A stretch of 64,000 bases of DNA from a bacterium (GTDB taxonomy: Bacteria; Electryoneota; Electryoneia; Electryoneales; Electryoneaceae): assembly GCA_963669175.1 (NCBI GenBank), contig OY769902.1, positions 1,472,001 to 1,536,000 of the forward strand, written 5' to 3'. Below, piece by piece: positions 31,039 through 57,822 of the stretch; within the stretch, counting starts at the first letter, position 1; each line of letters begins with the position of its first letter. Below the pieces are notes generated by a model. The model had not been told where the DNA came from, did no database searches, and was given only the letters and a program-made list of their open reading frames with translations. The translations under genes and the position numbers were made by a program.

Positions 31039-31470
31039 CTACATCTGCCCGGAATTTTCCAGAATCTCTCTTAGCGTCTTTGTGCGGTGGTGTTCTTTTT
31101 GATTGTGAACATATTCTAAAATAAAATCAAGGTGTTTCTCGGCAAAACTAACCACACCAAATCCACGTTGCCACCTCAATGTGTTTTGGCCAAATCTTTT
31201 ATTTAGTGAGTGCGCTGAAGCCCCTTTCAGTTTCCCTACAAAAGTACTGATCTCAACATGTGGCTCAAGTTGTATCACAAGATGTATATGAGTCGATGTC
31301 CCACCTAATCCCTTGAAATGAACCCCCTTGTTCATTACACAATGGTCTTTAAGGAATTCAAACAAAGGTTCCTCGATTGAAGATGTGATGCATGGCTCGT
31401 CTGCCAGACAATGCCATGTGATATGGAGAAAGATGCGATTGTAAACGTGACTTTGCCCTTTATCTGACAT
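31039..31470 (-). CDS. tnpA: IS200/IS605-family Y1 (HUH) transposase, RAYT-like
   Basis: LHITW, THIHLV (HUH), KLKGAS, WQRGFG..S, YVHNQKEHH catalytic Tyr. Confidence 0.92.
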   Translation of the reverse strand: MSDKGQSHVYNRIFLHITWHCLADEPCITSSIEEPLFEFLKDHCVMNKGVHFKGLGGTSTHIHLVIQLEPHVEISTFVGKLKGASAHSLNKRFGQNTLRWQRGFGVVSFAEKHLDFILEYVHNQKEHHRTKTLREILENSGQM

Positions 31471-40817: not shown

Positions 40818-41201
40818 TCAATCCTGTTTGGCTGCCAGGAAGGTGCGGAGGTTATGGGACAGGTTTTCCAGGCTGTAAGGCTTGAATATGACACCTATAA
40901 CGCCTGTAGGCAGGGGTTCTTCTTCCATCAGTTCGCCGGACACCACCGCGATTGGGCCATCATAGCCGGTAGCACGGATTTGCTCCAGCAGTTCATTCCC
41001 ATGCAGTTCGGGCATCATCCAATCGGTGAGCATCAGGTCAATTTCACTGCCATGTTCGTGGATTTCTATCAGGGCGGATTCTCCAGACTCTGCAAGGTGT
41101 ACCGTGTACCCCAGTTTGCGCAACATACTGCCGGCTACTTTCAGTACAGCTTCTTCATCGTCGACAAGAAGGATTGTTTCTGTGCCACGAGCAATGGCCA
41201 T
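40818..41201 (-). CDS. Single-domain response regulator
   Basis: ETILLVDDE, LTDWMMP, KPY. Confidence 0.9.
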   Translation of the reverse strand: MAIARGTETILLVDDEEAVLKVAGSMLRKLGYTVHLAESGESALIEIHEHGSEIDLMLTDWMMPELHGNELLEQIRATGYDGPIAVVSGELMEEEPLPTGVIGVIFKPYSLENLSHNLRTFLAAKQD

Positions 41202-41400
41202 TTTGGTACCTTATGGTCTTGTTCACACCCCCGCCGGCGGTTTTTGCATTCAGTTTATTATTCCCGTGCCAACTGGCGACATCCCTTACCCTACAATAAA
41301 ATGCGGAAAGGAACCCGTAAGCAAGAACTCCGTTAAAATAGCAATATTTTAGAAGAGTGGAGAGAATTCCTGCTTTCTCAAGGTAAAAGTTTGATTGTAT

Positions 41401-43731
41401 TTATTTTACGAGGATTGCTTTCCTCAACACCCGCTCCTCTCCGGCTTGGACCCTGACGATATAGACTCCGGAAGCCATGCGGTTCATGGGTAACATGAGC
41501 TGATGTCTGCCACGTTCCAGCGAACGTCTGACCGGTTCCATCACACGCTGTCCGGTGATAGCAAAGACACTGATCTCCACATCACCCGCACGAGGCAATT
41601 CAACGCTCACGGTTGTGACCTGGTTAAACGGGTTCGGGTATAACTCAGCAACAAGATGCGAGGTCGGAAGCTCGGAGTTGCTTTCTTCGTTATCCGGGGT
41701 ATGCAGTTGATCATAATAGAACGCGCCGATGTCGGCGACTGTACCGTCCGAATCGAGTTCAGTCGCAGGATTTCCGGCGTCTATCAGCGGTGAACCTTCT
41801 TGCAGGTGAAAATCCCCGGCATCAGGATCGACGAAGAGGGGATCGATGTTGCTGAAAATGGTGTTTCCGGTTTCTATGTTTGCGCCAAAGGGATGCTCCG
41901 TATCAGGGAAATAACCGGAATAATCTATGACAGAAGCTGTTCCTGAGACAAGTGTGTCCTCAAACCCATAAAAGAAGCTGTTCAGGATTTCCGCCTGTTC
42001 CTCGCCATAATTGGTTACAGCCGTTCCTTCAGCGTCATTATTCACAAAGGTGCAACGGTCAAGCTGTCTGAACCTGTTGGTCAGTTTGCCTTCTACAAGG
42101 GTGCGTTTCATCAGCTCAAACCGGGTTGTGCCGTACTTGCAGACAATGGAATCCTGCACCGCAAGGCGGGAATCCCGTATCACTGAATTTCCCTGCAACG
42201 ACCAGTTACCTTCATCTGTGATCGCATTCAGGGTGAGATTTCCTGCCTGGATGTCCGCATGTTCGAGGACGTACGGCAAATCAAGAATGAAATTATCAGC
42301 AATGATGTTCAGTCCGGTCCAGGTTGAGTCTGCACGCAGAAACCGGAATGGACCGTAGGTGTATTCCCGGGTATTGCAGTCGAACACCATATTCGGCATC
42401 ATACTCACGGTTTGCCCGGCGCTTTCCACTTCAATAATGACAGGATTCTCCGGTGTGCCGTTGATGTACAACTCGCTGAAAGGAGAGAAGAGATTACCGG
42501 ATAGCAGATCAGTGAAATTGGCGATAATATGCGCCCCCGGCCCCAGCACCAATTCGTCTGCAACGGTGATTGGTTCAGTGATGACAACGGTGGTGTCTTC
42601 GAGATGGTTGAAATAGCTGCGTTCGGGTCTGAGTCCGTCGGTACGCGGGAACCCGGGGGGAGGCGCCCAGGCGAGACGTTGGTCATACTGGGCGTCCATT
42701 TTATACCCGGTGCCGTTACAATTGGAGGTATGCCAGTACCCGCGCTGACGTTGTGCCAGCGAGCCACGAAGGTAAATGTTGCCTCGTTCGTCGCGTTCAT
42801 CCGCGTGGGGACCGTCCGGATCACACCAGATATAGTCATCTTCGGGATTGTTCTGGTGCTCGAATGTAAAAGAACCGTTCGCTGCCATCAAAGCAGCCAT
42901 GATGATCACATGTGAACTGTCGTGGTTGCCATTTGCCCGGTATAATCCATTCCCGCGTCCATTGGCCCAGGTGTCGGCGATGATAATGTCGTTCTGCGCA
43001 ACAATGCCCAGTCTATTACAATGCTCTTCCGGAACGACCTGCGGAAAATTGTTCACAGTAAAAGGGGCATGCATAATATTGTCGAGGAGGTAAATATCGC
43101 CTGAAGAGGCCAGTGTGGTTTGCCCATTGAACACACCATGTCCATCATCTTCATCGCATCCCTGTATTTCCAGTCTGCCCTCGACAAACACGCATGTGTT
43201 GCTGCCGTACATAACTATCGTTCTATTCAACATATTGGCTGGGTCATAAGGTAAATCACTACTCCACTGCTCAAGAAAAAAACTTCCAGTTCTTGAAGTG
43301 AGACGTGATTGCCATGCGCCGCTGTTATTGGAGTAATATTGCCCCTGTTCCGAAGCTATTTCGCGCAGGTACTGCAGGCTGTCGGGGAAGTAGACGGAAT
43401 CCGCATCGAAAGTCAGCCCACTAACGAACTCACCGCCAACCGCGAAGGAAGGTTGCGCGCAGGTGACCGGGAGCAGAAAGGTGACTGAATCCGCACGAAA
43501 CACCGAATTGAAATGGAACGGGCCTATGAATCGTGTTTCGTTGACGTATTCCGGATGTGGCGTCCAACCCAGTGTATCCCCTTGAGGTGTGATCTCGGAA
43601 TTGGAGATGTAGAGGTAATTGCAGAAACGTGGCAAGGATTCAGCCTGGACACTTGTTGCCAGCAGTATCAAACAGGCGGTTGCCTGCATCACGATGAGGG
43701 GAAAGCGTTGCAGATCAGTTCGATTTCTCAT
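41401..43731 (-). CDS. Paralog 1: secreted PilX/ComZ-like domain + beta-helix + T9SS type-A sorting domain
   Basis: Signal peptide; WCDP..DERG..GSLAQRQRG..GTGY..YDQRL..PPP; DPLF..SPLIDAG..DIGAFY; YPNPFN..ASGVY..ILVK. Confidence 0.85.
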   Translation of the reverse strand: MRNRTDLQRFPLIVMQATACLILLATSVQAESLPRFCNYLYISNSEITPQGDTLGWTPHPEYVNETRFIGPFHFNSVFRADSVTFLLPVTCAQPSFAVGGEFVSGLTFDADSVYFPDSLQYLREIASEQGQYYSNNSGAWQSRLTSRTGSFFLEQWSSDLPYDPANMLNRTIVMYGSNTCVFVEGRLEIQGCDEDDGHGVFNGQTTLASSGDIYLLDNIMHAPFTVNNFPQVVPEEHCNRLGIVAQNDIIIADTWANGRGNGLYRANGNHDSSHVIIMAALMAANGSFTFEHQNNPEDDYIWCDPDGPHADERDERGNIYLRGSLAQRQRGYWHTSNCNGTGYKMDAQYDQRLAWAPPPGFPRTDGLRPERSYFNHLEDTTVVITEPITVADELVLGPGAHIIANFTDLLSGNLFSPFSELYINGTPENPVIIEVESAGQTVSMMPNMVFDCNTREYTYGPFRFLRADSTWTGLNIIADNFILDLPYVLEHADIQAGNLTLNAITDEGNWSLQGNSVIRDSRLAVQDSIVCKYGTTRFELMKRTLVEGKLTNRFRQLDRCTFVNNDAEGTAVTNYGEEQAEILNSFFYGFEDTLVSGTASVIDYSGYFPDTEHPFGANIETGNTIFSNIDPLFVDPDAGDFHLQEGSPLIDAGNPATELDSDGTVADIGAFYYDQLHTPDNEESNSELPTSHLVAELYPNPFNQVTTVSVELPRAGDVEISVFAITGQRVMEPVRRSLERGRHQLMLPMNRMASGVYIVRVQAGEERVLRKAILVK

Positions 43732-43810
43732 CTGTCAGTCTCCTGGTATAACCATAGTCACGTGTCGGGAAACACGATTCAACATCTCAATGCGGTAACT
43801 ATAAAAACTC

Positions 43811-44046
43811 GTTTCACGCAAAGACGCAAAGGCGCAAAGAAAAGATTAAAAACATTTTAAGATAAAATATAAACTAATCTATCCTTAATTATAAAAATAC
43901 AAATAATATATTATTATGATTATTATGATTAATATTTAGTTGTAAATTCTTATTGGCATTTTTAAATTGTTTTATAAAATTTATATATTATTCAAATTAT
44001 TTCTTTATCTTTTCTTTTATCTTTTCTTTGCGCCTTTGCGTGAAAC
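43811..44046. repeat. IR-bounded AT-rich element A (orientation 1)
   Basis: GTTTCACGCAAAGACGCAAAGGCGCAAAGAAAAG...CTTTTCTTTGCGCCTTTGCGTGAAAC. Confidence 0.9.
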
Positions 44047-44060
44047 ATGTAGTGAAATGT

Positions 44061-46535
44061 TTACTTCAACAGTAAAATTTTCCTGACATCCATCCCCTGT
44101 TGTCCTGAGGCACGCAGGAAATAGGTGCCTGATGCCAGCGAGGCGCCGTTAATGGTCATAGTCTGCATTCCCGCCAGCATGAGACCGTCATGGATAGCCG
44201 CAACCGAACGTCCCAGGATATCCACCAGCTCGACCCGGACAACACCGGAACGGGGCAGCGCAAGCGTAACCTCTGCCACCGGGTTGAACGGGTTGGGATA
44301 AACGCTTTCAATTCGGAAGGCGGTTGGAAGACTCTCGGTACTGGTCAGGTCATCCGGGACATCGGTGGGATCGCACCAATAGGCTCCGATATCGGCGATG
44401 GAACGGTCCGGGTCACGTGGGCTGTCAGGTGATCCCGCATCAATCAACGGGCTTCCGGGGAGCAGGTAATAGTTCATCGAATCGGGCTCAACGAACATCG
44501 GGTCGACATTCGCCAGGATATTTTCGCCCACTTCCATTGGGTTCCAGAAAGGATAACCGTTGGGGAACTGGTCGTAGGCGCAATAGTCCAGTTGTCCTCC
44601 GCTACCACGTACCAGCGCGGCCTCGTATCCCTGGAAAAAACAACTGCGGATAACAACATCACGGTTCAGATCATTGGTTATCGCACAACGTGCATTGCCT
44701 GGATCAATGAAGGTGCAACGGTCAATGGTGCTGAACTTGTTAAACAGAGAACCGATCACAAGGTTGGATGTGAAGTTGTCATATTCATTCTGTTCTGTTG
44801 AACAGAGTATTGTGTCAGCAATCAGGGTGGAGCGATTAATAGAGTGTGAACTACTCAGCCCCCTGAGCTCAATATGATTGGCAACAAATTCAGATTTGGT
44901 CAACCTGTCCGGAATATTGAGAGTGAGGCGGTTACCATAAATGTGTAAACCTGACCATTCACGATCGTCAGAGTAATCTTCATTAGCAGTACACACGATA
45001 GTATCTGCTATCAAGGTGGAATTAGATATAGAATACGGGCAGCTATCATACTCTTCACATAGTCCCCGCAACTCAATATGATTAGCTTCAAATCTTGCAT
45101 CGGTCAGCATTTCGGGCATATTGACAAGCAGGCGGTTGCCATAGATATGCAAACCAGACCATTCGTGGTTTCCAAAGTAGCTTTGCAACTCGCGCATTGG
45201 CAACCCTTCACTTGTATTGTATACAAGTGAACTTTGATATTCCCCTGCATCTGTGAAGTGAATACTAACGGGATTGTCCGCTTCACCTTCAACACGAAGA
45301 TCACCGTATCTGAACTGGAAAAGCGGTTTCCCGCCCAGGTCCGCATGGATGGTTGTGCCAGGGCCGAGTGTTAAACTCATAAATACTAGAATCGGTTGAG
45401 TGACATACACAGTAGTATCTTGCCATGTGGTACCTTCTCTATTCCAAATGACAATCTGGTCTTCTTCCGGGCTGATAGAGGGGATACCGTTCGGTGGGTA
45501 GACTGCCAACCTTTCATCATAATAGAAGTCCAGATTATAGCCAGTGCCGCCACAGTTGGAGTTGTGCAGTTGCCCACGCTGCTGTTGTGCCAATGAGCCA
45601 CGCAGGAAGATCGTGCCACGTTCGTCGGTCTGGTCAGGATGCGCGCCATTGGGATCACACCAGATATAGGCATCATCAGGATTGTTCTGGTTCTCAATGG
45701 TGAGTTGGCCCAACGTCACCAGGGCGGCAGTGATCACAACGTGTGCCCGGTCATGGGAACCGTTGCCCTCGTGGAATCCATTACCGCGACCATTGGCGCT
45801 CGTGTTTCCAATAAGGATATTCTGTTCGGAAAGCAATGCCAGTCGGCTGTAAGTAATATCAGGGATTACAAAGGGGAAGTTCTCGTTTGTATAGGGATCA
45901 ATGATGATGTCGTTCATCAATGTCATATTGCCACTGCACCCGATAGAAACCTGACCATTTATCGAAGGAGAATTGCGACGGGGAGATAAAACCTGAAGCT
46001 CACCTTCGACAAATATGCTCGTACCACTACCGCACCATATTGATTCGTGATTCACAAGGCTACATGAATCATAAGGCGCACCCATCTCCCATTGTTCAAG
46101 ATATGCTCGCGTACCTACTAATTTGATTCGTGTTTGCCAACTTCCACGATGGTTGGAATAAAACAGTCCACTCCAATCCGCAAGTTCACGTAGCGCATGC
46201 AGCGAATCAGAAAACGCGATTGAGTCAGCATTAAAAGTCAGGCCGCCCAGGTATTGGCCGCCCACATTGAAGCGTGGTTGGGCGCAGAAAACCGGGTCGG
46301 TGAAGATCGCGGCATCGGCTTTGAACACGGAATTGAAGTGGAAGGGGCCGTAGAAAGCGCTGCCGGTCCAGCCTAATGTATCGCCGTCAAGCGTGATCTC
46401 AGTGCCGGAGATGTAAGCGTAGTCGGTGAAACGTGTGTACTGTTGGGCGTGTACCGACGCAATAACGCCGGAAAGCAGGTACAGTACCAGTACGTTCAGG
46501 AACAGTCGTCTCCCGATCAAAGTAAGCTTCTTCAT
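44061..46535 (-). CDS. Paralog 2 (with internal ~68-aa duplication)
   Basis: Same architecture; EWSGLHIYGNRL..ANHIELRG occurs twice. Confidence 0.85.
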   Translation of the reverse strand: MKKLTLIGRRLFLNVLVLYLLSGVIASVHAQQYTRFTDYAYISGTEITLDGDTLGWTGSAFYGPFHFNSVFKADAAIFTDPVFCAQPRFNVGGQYLGGLTFNADSIAFSDSLHALRELADWSGLFYSNHRGSWQTRIKLVGTRAYLEQWEMGAPYDSCSLVNHESIWCGSGTSIFVEGELQVLSPRRNSPSINGQVSIGCSGNMTLMNDIIIDPYTNENFPFVIPDITYSRLALLSEQNILIGNTSANGRGNGFHEGNGSHDRAHVVITAALVTLGQLTIENQNNPDDAYIWCDPNGAHPDQTDERGTIFLRGSLAQQQRGQLHNSNCGGTGYNLDFYYDERLAVYPPNGIPSISPEEDQIVIWNREGTTWQDTTVYVTQPILVFMSLTLGPGTTIHADLGGKPLFQFRYGDLRVEGEADNPVSIHFTDAGEYQSSLVYNTSEGLPMRELQSYFGNHEWSGLHIYGNRLLVNMPEMLTDARFEANHIELRGLCEEYDSCPYSISNSTLIADTIVCTANEDYSDDREWSGLHIYGNRLTLNIPDRLTKSEFVANHIELRGLSSSHSINRSTLIADTILCSTEQNEYDNFTSNLVIGSLFNKFSTIDRCTFIDPGNARCAITNDLNRDVVIRSCFFQGYEAALVRGSGGQLDYCAYDQFPNGYPFWNPMEVGENILANVDPMFVEPDSMNYYLLPGSPLIDAGSPDSPRDPDRSIADIGAYWCDPTDVPDDLTSTESLPTAFRIESVYPNPFNPVAEVTLALPRSGVVRVELVDILGRSVAAIHDGLMLAGMQTMTINGASLASGTYFLRASGQQGMDVRKILLLK

Positions 46536-46549
46536 GGTTCTGTCTCCTG

Positions 46550-48823
46550 TTATTTCAGCAATACGATTTTTTGTGTCAGTGTTTCTCGCTCAAACCTCAC
46601 GCGCAGGAAATAGGTGCCTGATGCCAGCGAAGCGCCGTTAATGGTCATGGTCTGCATTCCCGCCAGCATGAGACCGTCATGGACAACTGCTACCGAACGT
46701 CCCAGGATATCCACCAGCTCGACCCTTACATCACCGGAACGGGGCAGCGCCAGCGAAACCTCAGTCACCGGGTTGAACGGGTTGGGATAAACGCTCGCAA
46801 TCCGGAACGCGGTTGGAAGACTCTCGGTTCTGGTTAGGTCATCCGGGACATCGGTGGGGTCGCACCAATAGGCTCCGATATCTGCGATGGAACGGTCCGG
46901 GTCACGTGGGCTGTCAGGTGATCCGGCATCGATCAACGGGCTTCCGGGGAGCAGGTAATAGTTCATGGAATCGGGCTCAACGAACATCGGGTCGACATTG
47001 GCCAGGATATTTTCGCCCACCTCCATCGGGTTCCAGAAAGGATAACCGTTGGGGAACTGGTCGTAGGCGCAGTAGTCCAGTTGTCCTCCGCTACCACGCA
47101 CCAGCGCAGCCTCATATCCCTGGAAAAAACAACTCCTGACAGTTACATAACGATCTTGGTCGTTGGTTATCGCACAACGAGCGTTTCCCGGATCAATAAA
47201 AGTGCAACGGTCAATGGTGCTGAACTTGTTGAACAGAGAACCGATCACGAGGTTGGATTCAAAGTCCACGAATCTATTTGTTTGTGTCGTACACAGAATC
47301 GTGTCAGCGATCAGGATCGAGTTGGTAATTGTGTGTTCCAAATCTTCTTCACTGACAGAGTTTAATTCGATATGATCAGCAACAAGTTTAGAGTCGGTCA
47401 GAGATATAGGAACATTGAAAAGAAGACGGTCTGCATATACATGTAAACCTGACCACTCGTTATCTGCATAATAATTCCATTCATCCCAGAATTGGATTTC
47501 GCCATTATTATATACTAGCGTACTAGGATGTTCACCTGAATCTGTGAATACTATTGTTACAGGATTTTCTGCTTCGCCATTAACAAAAAGGCGGTTCCAG
47601 AACTGGAAAAGTGGTCGCTCACCGAGGTTTGCATAGATAGTCGTTCCCGGGCCAAGTGTCAAAGGGGCGTACAAGTAAATAGGTTGTGTAACATGTATGG
47701 TCGTGTCTTGCCAAGTACATACATCCCGAATAACAATCTGTTCTTCTTCAGGGCCGATAATGGGGATGCCATTCGGTGGGTAAGTAGCCATTCTTTCATC
47801 ATAGTAGAAATCCAGATCGTAGCCAGTACCACCACAGTTTGAGTTGTGCAGTTTCCCACGCTGTCGTTGTGCCAGCGAGCCACGCAGGAAAATTGTTCCA
47901 CGTTCGTCAGTCACATCCGGATGTGGACCATTGGGATCGCACCAGATATAGGCATCATCCGGATTGTTCTGATCTTCGATGGTAAACTGACCAAGGGTTA
48001 TCAGGGAGGCAGTGATGACAATATGCGCTCGGTCATGGGAACCATTGCCCATGTGGAATCCGTTACCACGTCCGTTTGCATTGGTATTCCCTATAAGAAT
48101 ATCCCCCTCGGCCAATAGCGCCAATCGGCTGTATGTGTCTTCAGGGATAACATAGGGGAAATCCTCGTTGGTATACGGGTCAATAAGCACATCATCCATC
48201 AGCTTCATTTTGCCGCTGCAACCTATGGACATTTGACCATTAATCGGGACGGGATTATGCAAGCGCGAAGCGATTTGAAGATCACCTTCGATGAACACGC
48301 ACACATTGCTTCCATAAGAGATAGCCATATGATCCACCAGGCTTGTTGAATCATAAGGCGCTCCGGATTCCCATTGTTCAAACAAAAAGCATCCATTGTG
48401 TACGTTTATTCTTGATTGCCAGCGTCCACCATGATTGCTAAAATAATTGCCACTCATGCTTGCGATTTCACGTACCCGGTGAAGCGTATCGGGGAACGCG
48501 ATGGAGTCAGCATTAAAAGTCAGGCCGTTCAGGTATTGGCCGCCCACATTGAAGCGTGGTTGGGCGCAGAAAACCGGGTCGGTGAAGATGGCCGCATCGG
48601 CTTTGAACACGGAATTGAAGTGAAAAGGGCCGTAGAAAGCGCTGCCGGTCCAGTCCAGTGTGTCGCCGTTAAGAGTGATCTCCGTGCCGGAGATGTAGGC
48701 GTAGTCGGTGAAACGTGTGTACTGTTGGGCAAAAACGCTGGATGGTAGAGTGTAAAAAAGGAAAAATACCATCACGGACAGGATTAACTGCCTTGTAAGA
48801 CGATAGATAGCTGGATTTCTCAT
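46550..48823 (-). CDS. Paralog 3
   Basis: Same architecture; start MRNPA after GGGG; 14 nt upstream of paralog 2 (operon). Confidence 0.85.
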   Translation of the reverse strand: MRNPAIYRLTRQLILSVMVFFLFYTLPSSVFAQQYTRFTDYAYISGTEITLNGDTLDWTGSAFYGPFHFNSVFKADAAIFTDPVFCAQPRFNVGGQYLNGLTFNADSIAFPDTLHRVREIASMSGNYFSNHGGRWQSRINVHNGCFLFEQWESGAPYDSTSLVDHMAISYGSNVCVFIEGDLQIASRLHNPVPINGQMSIGCSGKMKLMDDVLIDPYTNEDFPYVIPEDTYSRLALLAEGDILIGNTNANGRGNGFHMGNGSHDRAHIVITASLITLGQFTIEDQNNPDDAYIWCDPNGPHPDVTDERGTIFLRGSLAQRQRGKLHNSNCGGTGYDLDFYYDERMATYPPNGIPIIGPEEEQIVIRDVCTWQDTTIHVTQPIYLYAPLTLGPGTTIYANLGERPLFQFWNRLFVNGEAENPVTIVFTDSGEHPSTLVYNNGEIQFWDEWNYYADNEWSGLHVYADRLLFNVPISLTDSKLVADHIELNSVSEEDLEHTITNSILIADTILCTTQTNRFVDFESNLVIGSLFNKFSTIDRCTFIDPGNARCAITNDQDRYVTVRSCFFQGYEAALVRGSGGQLDYCAYDQFPNGYPFWNPMEVGENILANVDPMFVEPDSMNYYLLPGSPLIDAGSPDSPRDPDRSIADIGAYWCDPTDVPDDLTRTESLPTAFRIASVYPNPFNPVTEVSLALPRSGDVRVELVDILGRSVAVVHDGLMLAGMQTMTINGASLASGTYFLRVRFERETLTQKIVLLK

Positions 48824-48971
48824 GTCGGCCCCCACGTGCAGAGTTGTATCTTCTTCATGAAACGGGGGATGCAATTCAAGAACTACAGGAAGGTGGCCTT
48901 TTTAGCGGGTGAATCTTTACTAAAGATACTCATATCAGCTCAAAGATACAAGAGGTAAAGACAAAAAACTC

Positions 48972-49215
48972 GTTTCACGCAAAGACGCAAAGGCGCAAAG
49001 AAAAGAAAAAGAAAAGAACTGATTTACTTATTTATTTATTACGTCTCTTTTTTTTATGTAAAAAATATTAATGTATTTGCAAAATATGATCTTATATAGC
49101 GATAAAAATTGAATAGTATATATAAAAAATGAATTATATAATTGTATTGGTTTTCTTTTTAACATTAAGATTTTGTTTTTTCTTTTCTTTGCGTCTTTGC
49201 GTCTTTGCGTGAAAC
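48972..49215. repeat. IR-bounded AT-rich element B (interior in orientation 2)
   Basis: Same outer flanks as A (AAAACTC|GTTTCAC...GTGAAAC|ATGTAGT); interior starts AAAGAACTGATTT like element C. Confidence 0.88.
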
Positions 49216-49229
49216 ATGTAGTCGAATCA

Positions 49230-51476
49230 TTACTTCAGCAGGAGGATTTTCCTGATATCCATCCCCTGCGGGCTTTTGGCCTGCACAAAATACGTCCCGG
49301 AAGCCAGCGCTGTCCCATCCAGGGTGAAGCAGTGCATGCCTGCCGCGAGATTCGCGTGAGCTAGCTGCTGTACTTCTCGTCCCAGCACGTCATACACCGT
49401 AACCGTAAGCAATCCAGTTTGTGGCAAGGCGATGCGGATTTCTGTGGACGGGTTGAACGGATTCGGGTAAACGCTTTCAATATGAAAAGCATCGGGTAGA
49501 GAAGTGCCGGGATCGGGATGATCGACAGACGTATAATCAAAACAATACGCGCCGATATCGGTACGTGAGCCATCAGGATCAGCGGGTGACAATGGATCGC
49601 CTGCATCGATCAGGGGACTGCCGGGTTGCAGGTGGAAATTGAAGGAGGCTGGATCGATAAATTCCGGGTCTGTGTACTCGAGTACATAATGGCCATAGGT
49701 AATATCGCCCTGCATGGCCGGAACAGCATCGGTCAGGTAAGCACAATGATCCATTTCTACCGGGTACATGGACGACAGCAGCGTGGTAGTTCCGGTGAAG
49801 CAGGTGTTGTTTATCACCAATCCATCACCGGATTGGAAGTTCTGCAGACGTTCGAAACCGTCGAACGCGAAGGTGCAGTGATCAATCGAGTTAAAATAGC
49901 TATATAACCAGCCGGTCACCTCGCTGTACTCGAGATTACGGTAACGGTCTTCCTCGGGCGAATCTGTATGCGTATAGAGCTGGTTGACACGGAAGACGGA
50001 GCTGTCGATGTCGATCGAGGCGCTTGTGTCATTGAGGAGCGACACGGGTTGGATCAGGGTAAGCTGTTCGGCGAGCACATTGATTCCAGTAATCTTGCCC
50101 GGGATTTTCAGGGCGACATTATCGCCGGAAACCTGGAGGTTGCGCCATTCGTCTGCGCCATGCAAATTCTCAAAATCACCATCGAAAGGAATGATGGAAT
50201 CGCCAGTTGTCTGGATATTGATATGAACCGGATTCTCTGCTGTGCCGTTGATCTTGACCGCTGCACTAAAAAGCTCGAGAGGTGGATCGCTGGCGCCATC
50301 CTCGATGATCAGGGTGGTGCCCGGCCCCAGTTCCAAATCACCGAATATCATCAGTGAATCACCGTTACTGATCGTTACCGTGGTGTCGTGCCAAACTCCC
50401 TTCTGGACCAGATCATCCCGGTGTTGCCATTCGATTTCCGGGGAACCGGTCGGCCAGGCATGTGCCAGGCGGGTATCATAAACATATTCACGTGTGTATC
50501 CGGTGCCGCCGCAGGTAGAACGATGCAGGTAGCCCATACGGTAAAAGGCTGCCGACCCACGGAGGTAGATGTCGCCACGTTCATCTGTTTCACCGGAATG
50601 CACACCCGCCGGATCACACCAGTAATAATCATCGTCCGGGTCATTCTGGTCTTCGAAGGAGATTTCTTCGTTCAGGGCCAGCAGGGACGCCATGATAATG
50701 ATATGAGCATTATCGTGATTACCGGCGTTGTGGTATAACCCATTGCCCCTGCCGTTGGGACAGGTATTGCCGATCAGGATATTCGCTTCCGAAGCGAGGC
50801 CCAGCATATGGGGATTGTCTTCCGGGATAAGATCGGTGAAATCGTCTACGGTGAACGGGGTCAACAGCAGGTTATCGACAAGACGCATATTGCCTGATGC
50901 GCCTATCGTTGTACTTCCCTGGATACCATCGCCGAAAATGTCAAGATGACCATCGAAAAACAGGACACTTTCACCGAACGCAACCGTTCCTTCAGACGTC
51001 ACCTGCGTACTGTCCCAAGGCTGATCCGCCGGCCAGGCCCACCATTGCCAGCCGTCCTCGGAGGTTGTACAACGGAATTGCAGGGAGTTGTCTGGATTGT
51101 CAAAGAAGTTTCCCTGCGTGGTGGCCAGTTCACGAAGGCTGTGAAGAGTGTCCGGGAATAGTACCTGGGGAAAACGAAACTGTGGCTCTGTCGGATACCA
51201 GGGCGAAGCGCCGCCGCCAAGGTTGAACTCATTGGCTGAACTGAAGATTAGTCCGTAAAACTGCGGTGAATAACGAATACCGATTTGGGTGTTGCAATGG
51301 ATAGCACCGTAAATCGTATCCGGTGTCCAGAACCAGATTACCTCATTAAAAGTGCTTTCCTGGGTGTGGTAAATATACATGTAGTCGCTGAACCTGGTGA
51401 ACAGGGCAGCCTGGGAAGCGGGAAGCACGCCAAGGAGAAGCAGAATCAGGCTCAGTGTCACGTATGTGCGCTTCAT
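49230..51476 (-). CDS. Paralog 4
   Basis: Start MKRTYV after GGGAGG; IWFWTPD, WCDP..DERG, YPNPFNP..KILLLK. Confidence 0.85.
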   Translation of the reverse strand: MKRTYVTLSLILLLLGVLPASQAALFTRFSDYMYIYHTQESTFNEVIWFWTPDTIYGAIHCNTQIGIRYSPQFYGLIFSSANEFNLGGGASPWYPTEPQFRFPQVLFPDTLHSLRELATTQGNFFDNPDNSLQFRCTTSEDGWQWWAWPADQPWDSTQVTSEGTVAFGESVLFFDGHLDIFGDGIQGSTTIGASGNMRLVDNLLLTPFTVDDFTDLIPEDNPHMLGLASEANILIGNTCPNGRGNGLYHNAGNHDNAHIIIMASLLALNEEISFEDQNDPDDDYYWCDPAGVHSGETDERGDIYLRGSAAFYRMGYLHRSTCGGTGYTREYVYDTRLAHAWPTGSPEIEWQHRDDLVQKGVWHDTTVTISNGDSLMIFGDLELGPGTTLIIEDGASDPPLELFSAAVKINGTAENPVHINIQTTGDSIIPFDGDFENLHGADEWRNLQVSGDNVALKIPGKITGINVLAEQLTLIQPVSLLNDTSASIDIDSSVFRVNQLYTHTDSPEEDRYRNLEYSEVTGWLYSYFNSIDHCTFAFDGFERLQNFQSGDGLVINNTCFTGTTTLLSSMYPVEMDHCAYLTDAVPAMQGDITYGHYVLEYTDPEFIDPASFNFHLQPGSPLIDAGDPLSPADPDGSRTDIGAYCFDYTSVDHPDPGTSLPDAFHIESVYPNPFNPSTEIRIALPQTGLLTVTVYDVLGREVQQLAHANLAAGMHCFTLDGTALASGTYFVQAKSPQGMDIRKILLLK

Positions 51477-51517
51477 TCTTCCTCCCAGGGGTAGATCGTA
51501 TCCACTGAAAACTACTC

Positions 51518-51752
51518 GTCTCACGCAAAGGCGCAAAGGCGCAAAGAAAAGATAAAAGAAAAGACAAAGAACTGATTTAAATGATAAATAAATTATTATA
51601 ATACTATTTAATAATGCCAATAAGAATATATAGCTAAGTATTAATCGCGACAATTATAATAATATATTATTTATATTTTTAATTAAGAATAGGTTAGTTT
51701 ATGTTTTGCCTTAAAATGTTTTTAATCTTTTCTTTGCGTCTTTGCGTGAAAC
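51518..51752. repeat. IR-bounded AT-rich element C (reverse-complement homolog of A)
   Basis: ATGCCAATAAGAAT, ATAATAATATATTATTT, CTTAAAATGTTTTTAATC align to the reverse complement of A. Confidence 0.9.
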
Positions 51753-51765
51753 GATCAGTTAAGGT

Positions 51766-53997
51766 CTACTTCAGCAGGAGGATTTTACTCACATCCTGTC
51801 CCTGCCGTCCGGCCACACGCACAAAGTAAGTCCCGGATGCCAGAGCTGCTCCGTTAAACGTCAGCGAGTGAGTTCCGGCCTGCACTAATCCGTCCTGAAG
51901 CAGCGCCACACGCCGTCCCAGGATATCCAGCACTTCAACCGTGATCCTGTCCGCTTGCGGAAGTGCAATGTTTACCTGCGTCACCGGGTTGAAGGGGTTC
52001 GGGAAGACAGACGCGATACCGAAGCTTTCGGGAATCGTTTTCTGCGGATAGACAGGATCATTTATCCCAAGCTGATCAAAATAGTACGCCCCGATATCGG
52101 CGACCGTTGAATCCGGGTCAAATTCCCACGAAGGATCGCCGGCATCAATCAGCGGGCTTCCGGCGCTCAGGTGGAAGTAGCTGTCCGCGAATAACGGATC
52201 CACTTCACCCAGCATGTCATCGCCGACGCTGATGGCTTGTGAAAATGGTGTATCGCCTTCAAAGCCATACCATGCAGAAAAATCAATGAAAGCGGAGAGG
52301 CCATTTACCAGCCACTCCGGGGAGCCGTCAAAGAAGGTATTCACGATATACGCGCTAGTAACCTGGTTCGAAAGCGCGACATGGGCATCACTGCTGAAAG
52401 TGATACGATCCAGCTCGGAGAACCGGCTGATCGTGGTGCCATGCATCTCGGAACGTTTTAACACGACAAACTGGTCATCCTCGTTTTCAAGTTCAAACTG
52501 GTCGCCGAGGAACACAACCTTTTCCAGCACCATCGGGTTTGCAGGGCTGGTTTCCAGGTCTTCATGCGGAACGACTGTCATATTTCCAACTTCGAAACGG
52601 GCGTTGTACAGGTTCTGCGGGATCACGCTCCGAACATTGTATCCCTTGATGACAAAGTCATTCCAGGTGGTATCAGCAAGGATTGCCTGATCGCCGGTCC
52701 TCTCATCCCAGCCAACCAGGTTTGCAGTTTCATCTTCCCCGCCTTCGATCATGATCACAACGGGATTGTCCGGGGTGCCATCGATACGGAACTGCGCCCC
52801 GGCATAGAAGAAGAAAACACCTTCCGGGTCAGGATCGACAACATGGATTTCCGTACCCGGTCCAAGTGTCAGGTTGTTCCTGCGGAAATTGAAACGTGAT
52901 TGTACCGTAACCATGGTATCGGCCCAGACCTGGTCACCGTAACGGAAATCATCCGGGTACATGTGAGGCGGCGGGTTGTTCCTGAAACGATCATCATAAT
53001 AATACTGCTTGGCATACCCGGTGCCGCCACAGTTGGAACGGTGCATGTAGCCTCGCCGTTGCTGGACGATCGAACCAATTACACGGAAAACACCACGTTC
53101 ATCGGTTTCGCCAACATGATCACCCTGCGGATCGCACCAGAAATAATCATCCCAGGTATCATTCTGGTGCTCAAAGGTGATGCTTTCATCCAGTGCGACC
53201 AGCGCCGCGGTCACTACCAGGCTGGAACTGTCCGGCATCCAGCCGTGGTACACATATCCATTGCCTTGCCCATTGGCAGGGGTATCCGCGATATAGATGT
53301 TACGCAGGCCGATGATACCGACACGGGAGGAAACGGTATCGCTGAGCGTTTCCGGCCAGGAGTCGGGATCGACCCCTTCGTAAACAAGATTGTCAATCAA
53401 GTACACATCTCCGGCAACCCCGATCCCGGTGCCACCCAGGACATGATCCCCTTCGATCATCAGGTCGCCGTTGAAGTAAAGCGCCCGGTCGGCATCATAG
53501 GGGAAGGTTCCCTCTTCGGTGATCGGGCCATCACCATAAGGCACGCCGGCCTCCCAGCTCCGTACTAGCCATCCGAGTGAGGTTGCCCGGCAGATGTACT
53601 GCAGTGAATCAACAACACCTGAAAAATACGTTCCCTGTTCAGTAGCGGCCTCTTCCAGCCAGGTAATGGTTGAAGGGAGGATGACTTCTGGGGCGTTAAA
53701 AATTGGATCGTAAGGAGATATAAAATAAGCTCCTCCGCCATGAATAAAATCCTCTTCAGTTGTGCTTACATATCCAAAGCAAACCGGGTACATTTTTACG
53801 CCAATACCATCGTTCGAATGGATGTCGCCGTAGAGACTATCCGGCGTCCAGAACCAGATGATCTCGTTGAACTCGGTAACCTCGATATCACTCATGTAAA
53901 CATAATCGAGAAAAGCGGACAGTTGGGCAAACGAGCGAACAGGAAGAGACAGTAACCCAATGGCCACTGCCAGGATAGCAATTCGCAGAGCTTTCAT
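51766..53997 (-). CDS. Paralog 5
   Basis: Same architecture; IIWFWTPDSLYGDIHSN. Confidence 0.85.
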   Translation of the reverse strand: MKALRIAILAVAIGLLSLPVRSFAQLSAFLDYVYMSDIEVTEFNEIIWFWTPDSLYGDIHSNDGIGVKMYPVCFGYVSTTEEDFIHGGGAYFISPYDPIFNAPEVILPSTITWLEEAATEQGTYFSGVVDSLQYICRATSLGWLVRSWEAGVPYGDGPITEEGTFPYDADRALYFNGDLMIEGDHVLGGTGIGVAGDVYLIDNLVYEGVDPDSWPETLSDTVSSRVGIIGLRNIYIADTPANGQGNGYVYHGWMPDSSSLVVTAALVALDESITFEHQNDTWDDYFWCDPQGDHVGETDERGVFRVIGSIVQQRRGYMHRSNCGGTGYAKQYYYDDRFRNNPPPHMYPDDFRYGDQVWADTMVTVQSRFNFRRNNLTLGPGTEIHVVDPDPEGVFFFYAGAQFRIDGTPDNPVVIMIEGGEDETANLVGWDERTGDQAILADTTWNDFVIKGYNVRSVIPQNLYNARFEVGNMTVVPHEDLETSPANPMVLEKVVFLGDQFELENEDDQFVVLKRSEMHGTTISRFSELDRITFSSDAHVALSNQVTSAYIVNTFFDGSPEWLVNGLSAFIDFSAWYGFEGDTPFSQAISVGDDMLGEVDPLFADSYFHLSAGSPLIDAGDPSWEFDPDSTVADIGAYYFDQLGINDPVYPQKTIPESFGIASVFPNPFNPVTQVNIALPQADRITVEVLDILGRRVALLQDGLVQAGTHSLTFNGAALASGTYFVRVAGRQGQDVSKILLLK

Positions 53998-54146
53998 GGT
54001 CACCCCCCCTAAGGGCTCATCCAGCAGTTCACGCGGGGATGCGTTCCGGCTGCAACTTCTTTTATGGTGGCCAGATAATCTTTAACTAAAATATGTGCGG
54101 TCTCTTTCGAGATGCAAGCGCCTCGGAAACATTGGAAAAAAAACTC

Positions 54147-54387
54147 GTCTCACGCAAAGACGCAAAGGCGCAAAGGCGCAAAGGCGCAAAGGCGCAAAGG
54201 CGCAAAGGCGCAAAGACACAAAGAAAAGATTAAAAACATATTTTAAGGTGAAAGAATAAACAATTTTATGTATATAAACAGAATGTAAGTACTTTTAATA
54301 TTACAATACTTACAATTAAAGTATAACTACTAAATCTCATGAGCGTTTATAAAATTGTTAGAAATAAATAATATAGTAGTTAAATTA
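54147..54387. repeat. Element D: expanded left repeat (9 x 8 bp), orientation 1 interior, right IR missing
   Basis: (RCGCAAAG)8-ACACAAAG at 54152-54223 then AAAAGATTAAAAACATATTTTAAG; no CTTTGCG arm. Confidence 0.85.
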
Positions 54388-56634
54388 TTACTTCAGCAGG
54401 AGGATTTTACTGACATCTGTCGCTTGATGCCCGGAGAGGCGCACGAAGTATGTCCCGGAGGCCAGCTCAGCCCCATTAAACGTCAGCGAGTGGGTTCCGG
54501 CCTGCATCAAACCGTCCTGAAGCAACGCCACACGCCGTCCCAGGATATCCAGCACTTCCACCATGACATGATCCGCTTGCGGAAGTGAAATATCCACCTG
54601 CGTCACCGGGTTAAAGGGGTTCGGGAAGACAGACGCGATACCGAAGGATGATGGGATAGCCTGCTGCGGTGCATCGTGATCATCCACCGCCAACTGGTCG
54701 AAGTAGTACGCCCCGATATCGGCGATGGAACCGTCCGGGTCACGCGCACTTCCCGGATCACCGGCATCGATCAGGGGACTGTTTCCGTGCAGATGGTAAT
54801 CGCCGTTCTCGGGATCGACGAATCGTGGCTCAACATCCTCCAGCATATGCTCGCCGACCGCAATCTGCTGCCAGAAAGGATTATGCCCGCTGAATCCATG
54901 ATAACCGGAATAGTCTATGCTTCCACTCGACTGAGAGATCAGCGCTTCTTCATAACCCTGGAAGAAGGTATTTAGCACGGTCAGGTCTGGATTGAGATTC
55001 TGGATCGCGAAATCGGATGTGCCGATAAAGGTGGCCCGTTCGATACGCTGGCAGGAATTTCGCAGGGTGCCATGTATCTCGGCGTTTTTCAATTCAAGGT
55101 TATGGCCGCCGGGATTGAAAACCTCCAGGATAGTGCCAGTGAACATAAAACCATTGATCAGCATGGGATTCAGAGTGTCGATTTCGAGGGCTTCGTGTGG
55201 CTGCATGGTCACACGCGGAGCATTGATCTGAACATCTTGCAAGGTGTGCGGTATTTTCAGATTAATCCAGGTATTTCCGCTACTTTCGATGACCAGTCCG
55301 GACCATGTTGAATCGCTGATAACCCCGTGACCGTCAGTGCCCAGACTTTCCTCATACAAGGTGAATTCCGGCAGGGATTCCTCGTCCAGAAAGATACGAA
55401 CCGGGTTGTCCGAAGTACCGTTGATAAACAGCTTCATGCTGTCTGAAAGGGCACAGAGACTTCTCAAATCTCCCGAAACATGGATTTCGGTGCCGGGGCC
55501 TAAAATAAGGGTATTCCTGAAATACAACTGGTTGGACAGGAACAGGGTCGTATCGGTTAATGTGTGCTCTCGTCCCCAGAATGTGTTGGGGTACATGTGC
55601 GGCGGAGGGTTGGTAAGAAACCGCGCATCGTACTGGTATCTCGTGGCATAGCCCGTCCCGCCACAGGTGGAGCGATGGGTATATCCCCGCCGCATCTGGA
55701 CCAGGTTACCGATCAGGTTAATTGTCCCACGTTCGTCGCTCTGGCCGGGGTGCATTCCCTGAGGATCGCACCAGCGATAGGATTCCCAGGTGTCATTATG
55801 ATGTTCAAAGGTGAAGCTTTCCCCAAGAGCTACCAGCGCTGATGTTACGATGACATGTGAACTGTCGAAGTTGCCCCCGGATCGGTACAGCCCATTCCCG
55901 CGACCATTGGCCCAGGTATCGGCAATCCGGATGTCCCCGGCCGCGATGATGCCAAGGCGTGAAGTGATGGTATCGGAAAGGTTGTTTTGAAATCCGTTTG
56001 TGGGAACACCATCATACACAAGATTGTCGGTGATAAAGACATCCCTGTAAGTGTGGATTCCCGTTCCGCCGAGGATATGTTCCCCTTCGATGTAAAGATC
56101 GCCTTCAAAACTCAGCGCCACGTTTGGCGAGTAAGGAACCCAGTCCTCCAGCTCCATATTTGCGCTGTCAGGGGGCGTACCCAGCGGGTAACCTGTGATA
56201 TGCCAGCCATCCATGGTGGCTTTGCATTGGTATTGACGCAGCAGGCCGTCATCAGCGCTGTAATGGTGCCCTTGTGCCTGCGCTGCTATAATCATCCAGT
56301 CATGGATAGTCGGGAAATAGACTTCCGGTGCATTAAACTGGGGGGGGTAGGCAAACCAGGGCGAATACCCGGCGCCATGAACGAAATCGTCTTCTGTCGT
56401 GCTGACGTGACCGTGGAATTGAGGGGCGTACTTTATCCCAATGGCACTGTTGGAATGCACATTACCATAAACTGTATCCGGTGTCCAGAACCAGATAATA
56501 TACCCGAACATTGTATGTTCGTCATTCGTCAGGTACATGTAGTCCAGGTAATTGGACAGTTGTGCGGATGCTGCTGGTGGCAGTAGAGAGAGTATGCCCA
56601 GAAAAGCAGTGGTGATTACTAACGATTTCTTCAT
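54388..56634 (-). CDS. Paralog 6
   Basis: Same architecture; IIWFWTPDTVYGNVHSN; C-terminus close to paralog 5. Confidence 0.85.
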   Translation of the reverse strand: MKKSLVITTAFLGILSLLPPAASAQLSNYLDYMYLTNDEHTMFGYIIWFWTPDTVYGNVHSNSAIGIKYAPQFHGHVSTTEDDFVHGAGYSPWFAYPPQFNAPEVYFPTIHDWMIIAAQAQGHHYSADDGLLRQYQCKATMDGWHITGYPLGTPPDSANMELEDWVPYSPNVALSFEGDLYIEGEHILGGTGIHTYRDVFITDNLVYDGVPTNGFQNNLSDTITSRLGIIAAGDIRIADTWANGRGNGLYRSGGNFDSSHVIVTSALVALGESFTFEHHNDTWESYRWCDPQGMHPGQSDERGTINLIGNLVQMRRGYTHRSTCGGTGYATRYQYDARFLTNPPPHMYPNTFWGREHTLTDTTLFLSNQLYFRNTLILGPGTEIHVSGDLRSLCALSDSMKLFINGTSDNPVRIFLDEESLPEFTLYEESLGTDGHGVISDSTWSGLVIESSGNTWINLKIPHTLQDVQINAPRVTMQPHEALEIDTLNPMLINGFMFTGTILEVFNPGGHNLELKNAEIHGTLRNSCQRIERATFIGTSDFAIQNLNPDLTVLNTFFQGYEEALISQSSGSIDYSGYHGFSGHNPFWQQIAVGEHMLEDVEPRFVDPENGDYHLHGNSPLIDAGDPGSARDPDGSIADIGAYYFDQLAVDDHDAPQQAIPSSFGIASVFPNPFNPVTQVDISLPQADHVMVEVLDILGRRVALLQDGLMQAGTHSLTFNGAELASGTYFVRLSGHQATDVSKILLLK

Positions 56635-56973
56635 GTTGCCCCCTGGGCAGTGCCCGGTGTCCGTTTGCGGGGATGCGTACGGATCAAGGATTACAATAAA
56701 ATACGTTGTCTTGCATGGATTCTCAACATTTACATTAGAATCCGGTCGTTATTTATTCAGCAACCCTTCAATAAAAAAGAAGCAAGGTTCTTGTTACACA
56801 AAAGAGGGCGAAACAAATAGAAAGTCCGGATCAAGGTATTTGCCAATGTTCACTAAAGTTACCGAATCCGGTTGATGCACGATTCCTGTCAGAATTCCAG
56901 AATACTGATTGCATGAGAATCAACAGATAAGTACCTTCTTTTAGAAGATTGTTCTGGATGGGAGAGTCTGCCG

Positions 56974-57822
56974 ATGGATGAAGGTCTGGGTTTAGGCTAC
57001 AAGTTGGCGCATGGCACCGATGAGCTTCCCAGTCTCACTCCGGTTGTGAGTGAGGTACTGCGTTTGTCATCGGACTCCCGGACCTCCGCACGGCAACTGG
57101 CCAATGTGATCGGGCGCGACGTAGGCCTGTCCAGCCGTGTGTTGAGGCTTTCCAATTCGGCTTATTACGCGCACAGCCGTGAAGTTGAGAACCTCGAACA
57201 GGCAATTGTCATCCTGGGCCATAATGAGGTCCGTAACCTTGTCCTGGTTGCGGGCGCCTATGCTGCGTTCAAGAATGGATTGGACGATGAATTGTTCAAC
57301 CGCTTGTGGGAGCATATGCTTCTGACCGCATTTGCCGCAGACCGGATCAGCCAGCAAATCAGCCCGAGTGACCATCAGCTTGCCTATATCGCCGGATTGT
57401 TGCACGATGTCGGGAAAATGGTAATCGGTCTGTATTTCCCTCAGGAATACAAACGGCACCTGGATGAGCTGAGTTCAACTCCCTGCCGAATTACCTATCG
57501 TGAACGCAAAGTGTTCGGTATTGACCACCAGGATGTCGGCGGCATGTTGCTGGACCGGTGGCAATTCCCGAAAAGCCTGGTTGATGTGGCTGCGAGGCAT
57601 CATGGTACGGATATGAAGAGACCGCTGGTCAGTTCGTTAAACCGCCTGGTTGAACTGGCAGACTGGGTTGCCTATGCCGCCCAGGGAAATGAACCCCCGG
57701 ATGATCCCGTTACCAGGATTCTGGGCGCGTTGTCAGACCAGGAAATCGAATGGCGCGACTGGATCGACCAGGTGCGTGACCGGTTTGAACGTGAAGCGAT
57801 AACCTACCTAAGGCTTGGATGA
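56974..57822 (+). CDS. HDOD domain protein
   Basis: LPSL..RVLRLSNSAYY..AGLLHDVGK..DHQDVG..WQFP..HH. Confidence 0.9.
   Translation: MDEGLGLGYKLAHGTDELPSLTPVVSEVLRLSSDSRTSARQLANVIGRDVGLSSRVLRLSNSAYYAHSREVENLEQAIVILGHNEVRNLVLVAGAYAAFKNGLDDELFNRLWEHMLLTAFAADRISQQISPSDHQLAYIAGLLHDVGKMVIGLYFPQEYKRHLDELSSTPCRITYRERKVFGIDHQDVGGMLLDRWQFPKSLVDVAARHHGTDMKRPLVSSLNRLVELADWVAYAAQGNEPPDDPVTRILGALSDQEIEWRDWIDQVRDRFEREAITYLRLG

Follow-up and report, generated by a model that had tools for sequence, protein, structure and literature searches.

The question raised by this locus is whether the AT-rich segments lying between six co-oriented genes for secreted proteins are switches that invert to control those genes, or are elements of another kind. 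The locus occupies positions 41,401 to 56,634 of a 64,000-nucleotide (nt) stretch of an Electryoneaceae genome (GenBank assembly GCA_963669175.1, contig OY769902.1, positions 1,472,001 to 1,536,000). This whole stretch is called the window, and positions given below are those of the window unless the genome or a contig handle is named. An initial annotation of the window had described four such segments (here elements A to D) and had proposed that they are independent invertible ON/OFF switches. In the reading preferred here, which is held with about even confidence, A to D are palindromic elements resembling miniature inverted-repeat transposable elements (MITEs) or repetitive extragenic palindromic (REP) sequences, which form long RNA hairpins and possibly act as terminators. 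Five results argue against a dedicated switch: the dispersal of the arms that bound the elements, the housekeeping contexts of similar elements, the promoter-like sites outside the elements, the lack of A in a close relative and the young age of the interiors.

The four segments, at 12-25% GC, stand out by composition. The GC content falls to minima of 0.175 to 0.28 (200-nt windows) at about 43800-44050, 48900-49200, 51500-51750 and 54150-54390, in a genome with a GC content of about 0.50. The arms have the consensus GTYTCAC(GCAAAGRC)n. Inverted pairs of arms bound A, B and C, and D has the left arm alone, just as the initial annotation had described. The arm pattern CACGCAAAGRCGCAAAG, with at most one mismatch, has 11 matches in the window and all 11 lie inside the four segments, where 100 shuffles gave an expectation of 0. 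The elements are as follows.

Element A: 43811..44046, no strand assigned; left arm 43811-43839 (3 cores), right arm 44026-44046 (2 cores).
Element A interior: 43840-44025, no strand assigned; 186 nt, GC 0.12.
Element B: 48972..49215, no strand assigned; left arm 48972-49000, right arm 49187-49215.
Element B interior: 49001-49186, no strand assigned; 186 nt, GC 0.16.
Element C: 51518..51752, no strand assigned; left arm 51518-51546, right arm 51732-51752.
Element C interior: 51547-51731, no strand assigned; 185 nt, GC 0.17.
Element D: 54147..54375 (end approximate), no strand assigned; left arm 54147-54223, then an AT-rich body, right arm absent.

Elements A to C have the form of small elements with terminal inverted repeats (arms of 21-29 bp on both sides) and no coding capacity. 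The interiors of A to D contain no conserved open reading frame (ORF); the only ORF that crosses C is the longer listed form of gene 4, which is spurious. Element A lies 14 nt past the stop codon of paralog 2 and 79 nt ahead of the ATG of paralog 1, B lies 148 nt upstream of the ATG of paralog 3, and C lies 41 nt ahead of the ATG of paralog 4. The right arms of A to C begin 13-14 nt past the upstream stop codon. The left arm of D contains eight in-register GCAAAG cores and a degenerate ninth (ACAAAG). Thus the D arm (54154-54223) has 8-9 octamer cores compared with 2-3 in A to C and a range of 1-8 in the genome, which suggests slippage in the tandem octamers. An Rfam scan of positions 41000-57500 returned a single match below E 1, unrelated and at chance level (DUF2693-FD, E 0.42).

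The arm is not confined to the array. The initial annotation had called for a genome-wide search for further copies, and a regular expression (TYTCAC, octamers, GCAAAG) found 72 arms dispersed through the 5.45-Mb genome (37 forward and 35 reverse), most of them solo. The numbers of cores were 1, 2, 3, 4, 5 and 8 in 28, 14, 24, 4, 1 and 1 copies, respectively. A tail of about 40 nt, A-rich and on the inner side of the arm, is also common to the copies. Only eight pairs of arms in the genome face each other within 2.5 kb, with spacers of 186, 186, 185, 288, 358, 303, 762 and 1356 nt, and A, B and C are among them. An 18-base form of the arm was present in six of 41 related genomes, belonging to three families of the phylum, in 41, 39, 13, 8, 8 and 3 copies; the reversed pattern, used as a control, gave 0 in the 41 genomes. 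A 26-base form was found with exact identity at no fewer than 125 loci in a collection of species-representative genomes, covering about nine phyla. Among the matches listed, the record titles named Cyanobacteria, Acidobacteriota, Planctomycetota, Verrucomicrobiota, Alpha- and Gammaproteobacteria, Desulfobacterota, Bacteroidota, Chloroflexota and Spirochaetota, and Nostocaceae records were frequent. In addition, the 26-base arm was found at 28 loci in IMG/VR viral contigs. Facing pairs occurred at 35 of the at least 125 genomic loci, and 32 of 37 spacers were at most 164 nt, so these pairs are plain hairpins. A full-text literature search on the arm strings and the names of the cargo families found no relevant description of the repeat. 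A small ORF starting from an ATG just before the arm was considered and rejected, since the variation in octamer number from 1 to 8 would shift its frame.

In one further place in the genome (G000:C1:2296094-2296943) the arm is part of a larger tandem array of four units of about 270 nt; every unit contains a single reverse arm, and behind the arm come a GC-rich hairpin and a T run.

By crude ORF calls, 15 arms in the genome lie at most 60 nt past a stop codon; four of these follow genes for proteins with the C-terminal sorting domain (CTD) of the type IX secretion system (T9SS), and three of those four are in the array. A paralog array in a different genus (G003) has a solo arm about 10 nt past a stop codon; the spacer there measures 80 nt and lacks an AT-rich island. 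Two other facing pairs in this genome enclose AT-rich cores, one of 288 nt at GC 0.25 and one of 358 nt at GC 0.19. One such pair has an Epimerase-family gene on one side and an Aminotran_1_2 gene on the other, and the second lies between a PG_binding_1 gene and a convergent DeoC (aldolase) gene. Both are housekeeping contexts, and this kind of element is not tied to surface genes.

In a genome of the same genus (G001, locus L015, 4530-4710 and 6960-7210) the spacers between paralogs consist of tandem modules of 7-8 nt, of GTTNNAAA-type, ATTCTTA-type and ATCCT-type, with no GCAAAG arm.

These counts also bear on whether the AT-rich segments could be native regulatory or promoter islands, with the arms as incidental neighbors. 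The genome contains 117 islands with a GC content below 0.25 over 150 nt. Most of them (106) are more than 120 nt away from any arm, and CTD genes adjoin many of them, which is in favor of native islands. However, 11 of the 117 lie within 120 nt of an arm and five are accompanied by both arms, which by our estimate is far above chance for 72 arms in 5.4 Mb. The three paired interiors are nearly identical in length and abut the arms exactly, and a close relative in sequencing run X3, described below, lacks element A. For these reasons, native islands are very unlikely to account for the segments.

The initial annotation was correct in placing six co-oriented paralogs here: all six ORFs are on the minus strand and they encode proteins of 745-824 amino acids (aa) as listed, or 748-824 aa after start correction. 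Three starts (genes 3, 4 and 5) were corrected on the basis of N-terminal signal peptides and ribosome-binding sites. The genes are as follows.

Paralog 1: 41401..43731, minus strand; 776 aa, signal peptide, T9SS-sorted, body without a family.
Paralog 2: 44061..46535, minus strand; 824 aa.
Paralog 3: 46550..48823, minus strand; start corrected to the ATG at 48823, leader with GCATCCCCC and GGGGG-N5-ATG.
Paralog 4: 49230..51476, minus strand; start corrected to 51476.
Paralog 5: 51766..53997, minus strand; start corrected to 53997, leader with ACGCATCCCCGC and GGGGGG.
Paralog 6: 54388..56634, minus strand; 748 aa, no element upstream.

All six paralogs carry the T9SS sorting domain (Por_Secre_tail, PF18962, E 2e-10 to 3e-7), and the three that were tested against TIGR04183 also matched it. 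The body of about 650 residues matched no Pfam or NCBIfam family above the cut-off, the sorting domain being the only part that could be named, and a sequence search of the PDB with paralog 1 found no solved structure below E 0.19. Relatives were sought with paralog 1 in species-representative genome contigs and with paralog 3 in metagenome contigs, and none were found. Paralog 2 starts 14 nt 3' of paralog 3, so the two probably form one operon. The protein encoded by gene 1 is 35-45% identical to the other five.

The interiors of A and C are more alike than the genes. The interior of C is the reverse complement of that of A, in agreement with the initial annotation: 160 of 184 interior bases are identical between A and the reverse complement of C, with an alignment score of 263 against a shuffle mean of 69 (sd 9.5), and BLAST gave 87.2% identity across 218 nt. 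The inward-reading ends of A and C correspond crosswise (z = 12 and z = 9.7). The left end of D is like the left end of A (z = 3.3). The left end of B is like the left end of C (z = 3.2), and the right end of B is also like the left end of C (z = 2.8); the orientation of B is thus weakly assigned. Since A and C are reverse complements within a set of co-oriented genes, orientation differed at least once in the history of the elements. The interiors of A and C are 87% identical while the neighboring genes are 35-45% identical at the protein level, which points to copying or homogenization of the interiors well after the genes had duplicated. Copying through the arms could set a core in either orientation, since the arms are symmetric. 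The spacers of the array that contain no element barely align.

The same comparison is the starting point for programmed inversion, in which a recombinase acting in trans would flip the interior of about 186 nt and turn a promoter, giving phase-variable, combinatorial expression of the T9SS cargo. We regard this as unlikely, although several results are in its favor. First, inverted arms of 21-29 bp bound segments of about 186 nt directly upstream of paralogs 1, 3 and 4. Secondly, A and C are reverse complements. Third, with A and C opposed, D like A and B perhaps like C, at least two changes of orientation would have occurred among the four elements. The initial annotation had gone further and concluded that the pattern implied a flip inside the inverted repeats rather than independent insertion, because B kept the flanks of A around an interior like that of C. 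The flanks are in fact shared: the left flank AAAAACTC is common to A, B and D and the right flank ATGTAGT is common to A and B. The likeness of the B interior to C is weak (z 3.2 compared with 2.8 for the opposite end). At element C, the left flank matches that of A at 6 of 8 bases in the same orientation and 4 of 8 inverted, while the right flank matches at 7 of 14 bases inverted and 5 of 14 direct. The flanks of C are split between orientations and are too short to decide the matter; a flip in place is possible and is not demonstrated by them. Element D does not have a second arm and so cannot flip, which counts against programmed inversion.

Such a switch would require a recombinase. The initial annotation had noted none in the window, and this holds: neither Phage_integrase nor Resolvase has a match within the window (genome 1472001-1536000), and the one match to Y1_Tnp is at 31099-31437. 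In the whole genome there are 10 Phage_integrase (tyrosine recombinase) matches and one Resolvase (serine recombinase) match, which is in favor of a switch. However, none of these lies beside an element, and the linked recombinase for which the initial annotation had suggested a search was not found. The open frame that holds the only serine recombinase match is 516 aa long, and no further match was found, so no small Hin-type invertase was seen.

Y1_Tnp has 10 matches in the genome. The one in the window (31099-31437, minus strand) is of the IS200/RAYT type (E 2.6e-18, a 151-aa open frame) and lies about 10 kb from the array. The arms were considered as REP sequences associated with such a transposase and this was rejected, since Y1_Tnp is found in 38 of the 41 relatives regardless of the arm and none of its matches is adjacent to an arm here.

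Sequencing runs offered a further view of the elements. Four runs (X1 to X4) were used, all as Logan contigs with k=31; X1 and X2 are from one sample, which is probably the source of the assembly. The arm and its shared tails are longer than 31 nt, so contigs of this kind are interrupted at each arm, and no flank can be tied to an orientation through them. No joint between opposite strands within an element is listed in these contigs, which cannot report orientation. An X2 contig (552 nt, depth 30.4) joins the interior of C to the right flank of A on opposite strands through a shared 33-mer. This joint could be read as an inversion of 7.5 kb between the right arm of A and the left arm of C, and it is equally explained as a path through the assembly graph; the corresponding X1 contig stops at the arm, and the joint was not used. 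Run X4 gave pieces of 151 nt only. Run X3, a marine metagenome by its label, gave pieces mostly 90-95% identical to the window. One X3 contig, at depth 10, has a loose end of 30 letters before window position 44062, of which the first 17 match window positions 43768-43784 at 16 of 17. This places the left flank of A directly against the stop codon of paralog 2 in that relative, so element A is absent there, which speaks against both a native island and a resident switch.

A switch would also need a promoter that turns with the interior. The gap between arm and ATG is 79 nt at gene 1 and 41 nt at gene 4, so promoters inside or upstream of the elements are needed, and at gene 4 this counts in favor of a switch. 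The best conserved promoter-like site in A and C, homologous in position between the two, is of the form TTGGCA-N16/17-(T/A)A(A/T)AAT; in A it is directed away from gene 1 and in C it faces gene 4, as programmed inversion would have it.

Promoter-like site in A: 43953..43980, plus strand; TTGGCA-N16-TAAAAT, a consensus match that reads into paralog 2 at its 3' end, away from paralog 1.
Promoter-like site in C: 51592..51620, minus strand; TTGGCA-N17-AATAAT, a consensus match directed towards paralog 4.

However, the region has 21 promoter-like matches compared with 19.8 expected from shuffles, and thus no excess. In addition, a conserved leader and promoter-like sites at genes 3 and 5 lie outside elements B and D. 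The sites are upstream of the leader and are of the form TTGYAT-N17/18-TATYTT (TTGTAT-N17-TATCTT at gene 3 and TTGCAT-N18-TATTTT at gene 5). The leader, common to genes 3, 5 and 6, combines GCATCCCC, placed 32-49 nt ahead of the ATG, with a ribosome-binding stretch GGGGG at a distance of 5 nt (48860-48875, 54040-54060 and 56670-56690), and the same arrangement is found at a paralog in G001 (L015, about 2130-2245). Gene 6 has no element, and its upstream region (56635-56973) contains the leader motif and TTGAGA-N17-TATTTT. The similarity among the upstream regions of genes 3, 5 and 6 is weak and serves as a hint only, with local alignment z values of 3.4 and 3.7 in short blocks and 0.3 for 3 against 6. 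Together with the cross-phylum dispersal of the arms, most of which are solo or enclose a spacer too short for a promoter, and with the similar elements in housekeeping contexts, these results weigh against programmed inversion.

Within the leader, GCATCCCC and GGGGG could pair and mask the ribosome-binding site.

The elements have the potential to form hairpins. As RNA of the sense strand, A has a folding energy of -67 kcal/mol (z -8.8) and C one of -59.7 kcal/mol (z -5.1); in both, the arms are paired and 0 of 200 shuffles fold as well. GAG and then a run of U5-U8 follow the arm duplex at A, B and D. The outer hairpin of the D arm with T8 was scored as terminator-like on the minus strand (54162..54146).

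In the preferred reading, A to D are non-coding elements that end in inverted copies of a dispersed, modular repeat. This repeat combines a TYTCAC heptamer with GCAAAGRC octamers, 1-8 in tandem, and has an A-rich tail. The elements would have reached the spacers, or been copied between them, long after gene duplication. Either orientation would be obtained through the symmetric arms, by insertion or by arm-templated recombination or conversion, and the elements would be static on a physiological time scale. In transcripts of the array, the arms would pair as a duplex of about 21-29 bp closing a largely self-paired, AU-rich body, with a U run on the transcription-downstream side of the duplex. 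The arm duplex and the downstream U run would make it likeliest that the effect is to terminate or insulate transcription between paralogs and not to switch it.

Several results weigh against this reading. First, the flanks shared by A, B and D on the left and by A and B on the right, around a B interior that may be reversed, are what a flip in place predicts. Secondly, the near-equal lengths of the interiors (186, 186 and 185 nt) are suggestive of constraint. Third, the interior of A and C was found without another copy in this genome (BLAST) or in the five arm-bearing relatives, so it is unlike an ordinary MITE family, which would have more; the arms with their A-rich tails are dispersed, and this interior occurs in the array only. 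In addition, no target-site duplication was seen by eye at A, B or C or at the element at genome position 3842453, no cognate transposase was identified, and no listed Y1_Tnp match adjoins an arm when coordinates are compared. The region has 11 terminator-like consensus sites compared with 15.4 expected, the terminator role being otherwise drawn from folding, and the loop of about 190 nt closed by the arm duplex is unlike that of canonical terminators. Lastly, the empty site for A comes from a single contig of a single run (X3).

The fold is also compatible with a processing cassette, in which an arm duplex of at least 21 bp would be a substrate for RNase III, as in the intervening sequences of rRNA. 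Neighboring cistrons would then be uncoupled or the insert removed, and the orientation of the DNA would be irrelevant. The pairing of the arms in the minimum-free-energy folds is in agreement with this, and so are the genes found with such repeats. Among 60 ORFs that start at most 200 nt inside an arm in other phyla, four encode PDDEXK_3 proteins (GxxExxY), two encode KGK proteins, four are ordinary genes (UDG, a flavoprotein, L7/L12 and a cupredoxin) and 50 have no family at E 1e-5. This genome has one PDDEXK_3 gene and three PF05635 genes, none inside A to D. Arrays of other short tandem units, of AGGATA-, GGTAAA/GTGAAA- and AATTAA-type, stand in inverted orientation on either side of the PDDEXK_3 gene and of two PF05635 genes (G000:C1:3093150-3093660, 896650-897200 and 5095560-5096090), and the flank of the PDDEXK_3 gene begins with GTCTCAC, as the arm does. 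At the third PF05635 gene (near 899100) the flanking arrays are near-direct. These cassettes sit between operon-like neighbors, read by eye as NuoH/NuoI and riboflavin enzymes. However, RNase III cleavage is deduced from duplex length alone, the solo arms that form the majority cannot form a duplex, and A to D contain no ORF. A processing cassette is accordingly quite unlikely as an account of these elements.

The arm belongs to a wider class of modular repeats made of tandem units, and it is not a recombination site private to the array. A broader reading goes further. The arms may define an undescribed, pan-bacterial class of cassettes with inverted ends made of TYTCAC and tandem octamers, which spreads between phyla and inserts just behind stop codons. 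Its cargo would be nothing, small PD-(D/E)XK or four-helix-bundle genes, or AT-rich cores. In the array, the core would be reversible, and a mobile hairpin would have been co-opted as an orientation-dependent promoter or terminator. We consider this broader reading doubtful.

The comparison with known systems follows the same lines. Invertible promoters (invertons) control the capsule and fimbrial loci of Bacteroides and act at fimS in E. coli. The elements here are like invertons in that segments of a few hundred bp, enclosed by inverted repeats, precede genes for surface or secreted proteins, and in that two orientations exist among homologous copies. They are unlike invertons in that the arms are a cross-phylum dispersed repeat and mostly solo, no linked invertase was found and D is single-armed. 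The Correia repeat-enclosed elements of Neisseria, the pneumococcal BOX and RUP elements and the enterobacterial REP sequences and bacterial interspersed mosaic elements (BIMEs) are small non-coding palindromic repeats. They share with the present elements the terminal inverted repeats, the intergenic location, often just past stop codons, and hairpins able to terminate transcription or to be processed; BOX is also modular, with a variable number of internal units. The differences are that the arm here consists of tandem octamers after a TYTCAC heptamer, with exact 26-base identity across phyla, that the AT-rich core of the array elements occurs at this locus only and that no target duplication was seen. 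The cassettes of PF05635 (23S_rRNA_IVP) and PDDEXK_3 are similar in that inverted arrays of short tandem units flank an insert between operon genes, and a GCAAAG-type arm precedes the PDDEXK_3 genes at the four loci of other phyla. They differ in that A to D have no ORF and the ORF-bearing cassettes of this genome use other units. Lastly, the short tandemly repeated repetitive (STRR) sequences and other small dispersed repeats of heterocystous cyanobacteria are intergenic tandem units of 7-8 nt that occur as dispersed modules; the unit sequences of STRR differ from the present ones, and inverted pairs with cargo are not known from STRR sequences.

If programmed inversion were true, phase variation of the inverton type would be extended to a family of T9SS cargo in a little-studied lineage. 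The 26-base octamer repeat is the more firmly established result and perhaps the more general one: it is found, by record title, across about nine phyla, forms hairpins and sometimes flanks small PD-(D/E)XK genes. If it were known what moves or maintains this repeat, and whether transcripts are terminated or processed at it, a common origin of spurious small ORFs would be explained, as would a recurrent feature of intergenic DNA in many phyla.

Three minor observations concern the window and the genome as a whole. A second dispersed repeat of at least 70 nt, unrelated to the arm and beginning AAACAGGGAATAGACACGCAAAGGGATACCGG, has dozens of near-identical copies listed across the genome and one copy in the window, at about 18133 on the minus strand. 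Paralogs 2 and 3 (44061-48823) have long identical stretches at both protein ends, while gene 1 is only about 45% identical to them, and from their sequences this suggests a recent duplication of, or gene conversion between, the two. In the whole genome, 332 of 3764 crude ORF calls (about 9%) match a profile made from the C-terminal sorting domains of the paralogs, with both the ORF calls (longest non-overlapping, at least 90 aa) and the profile being home-made; by this count the T9SS cargo set of the genome would be unusually large.

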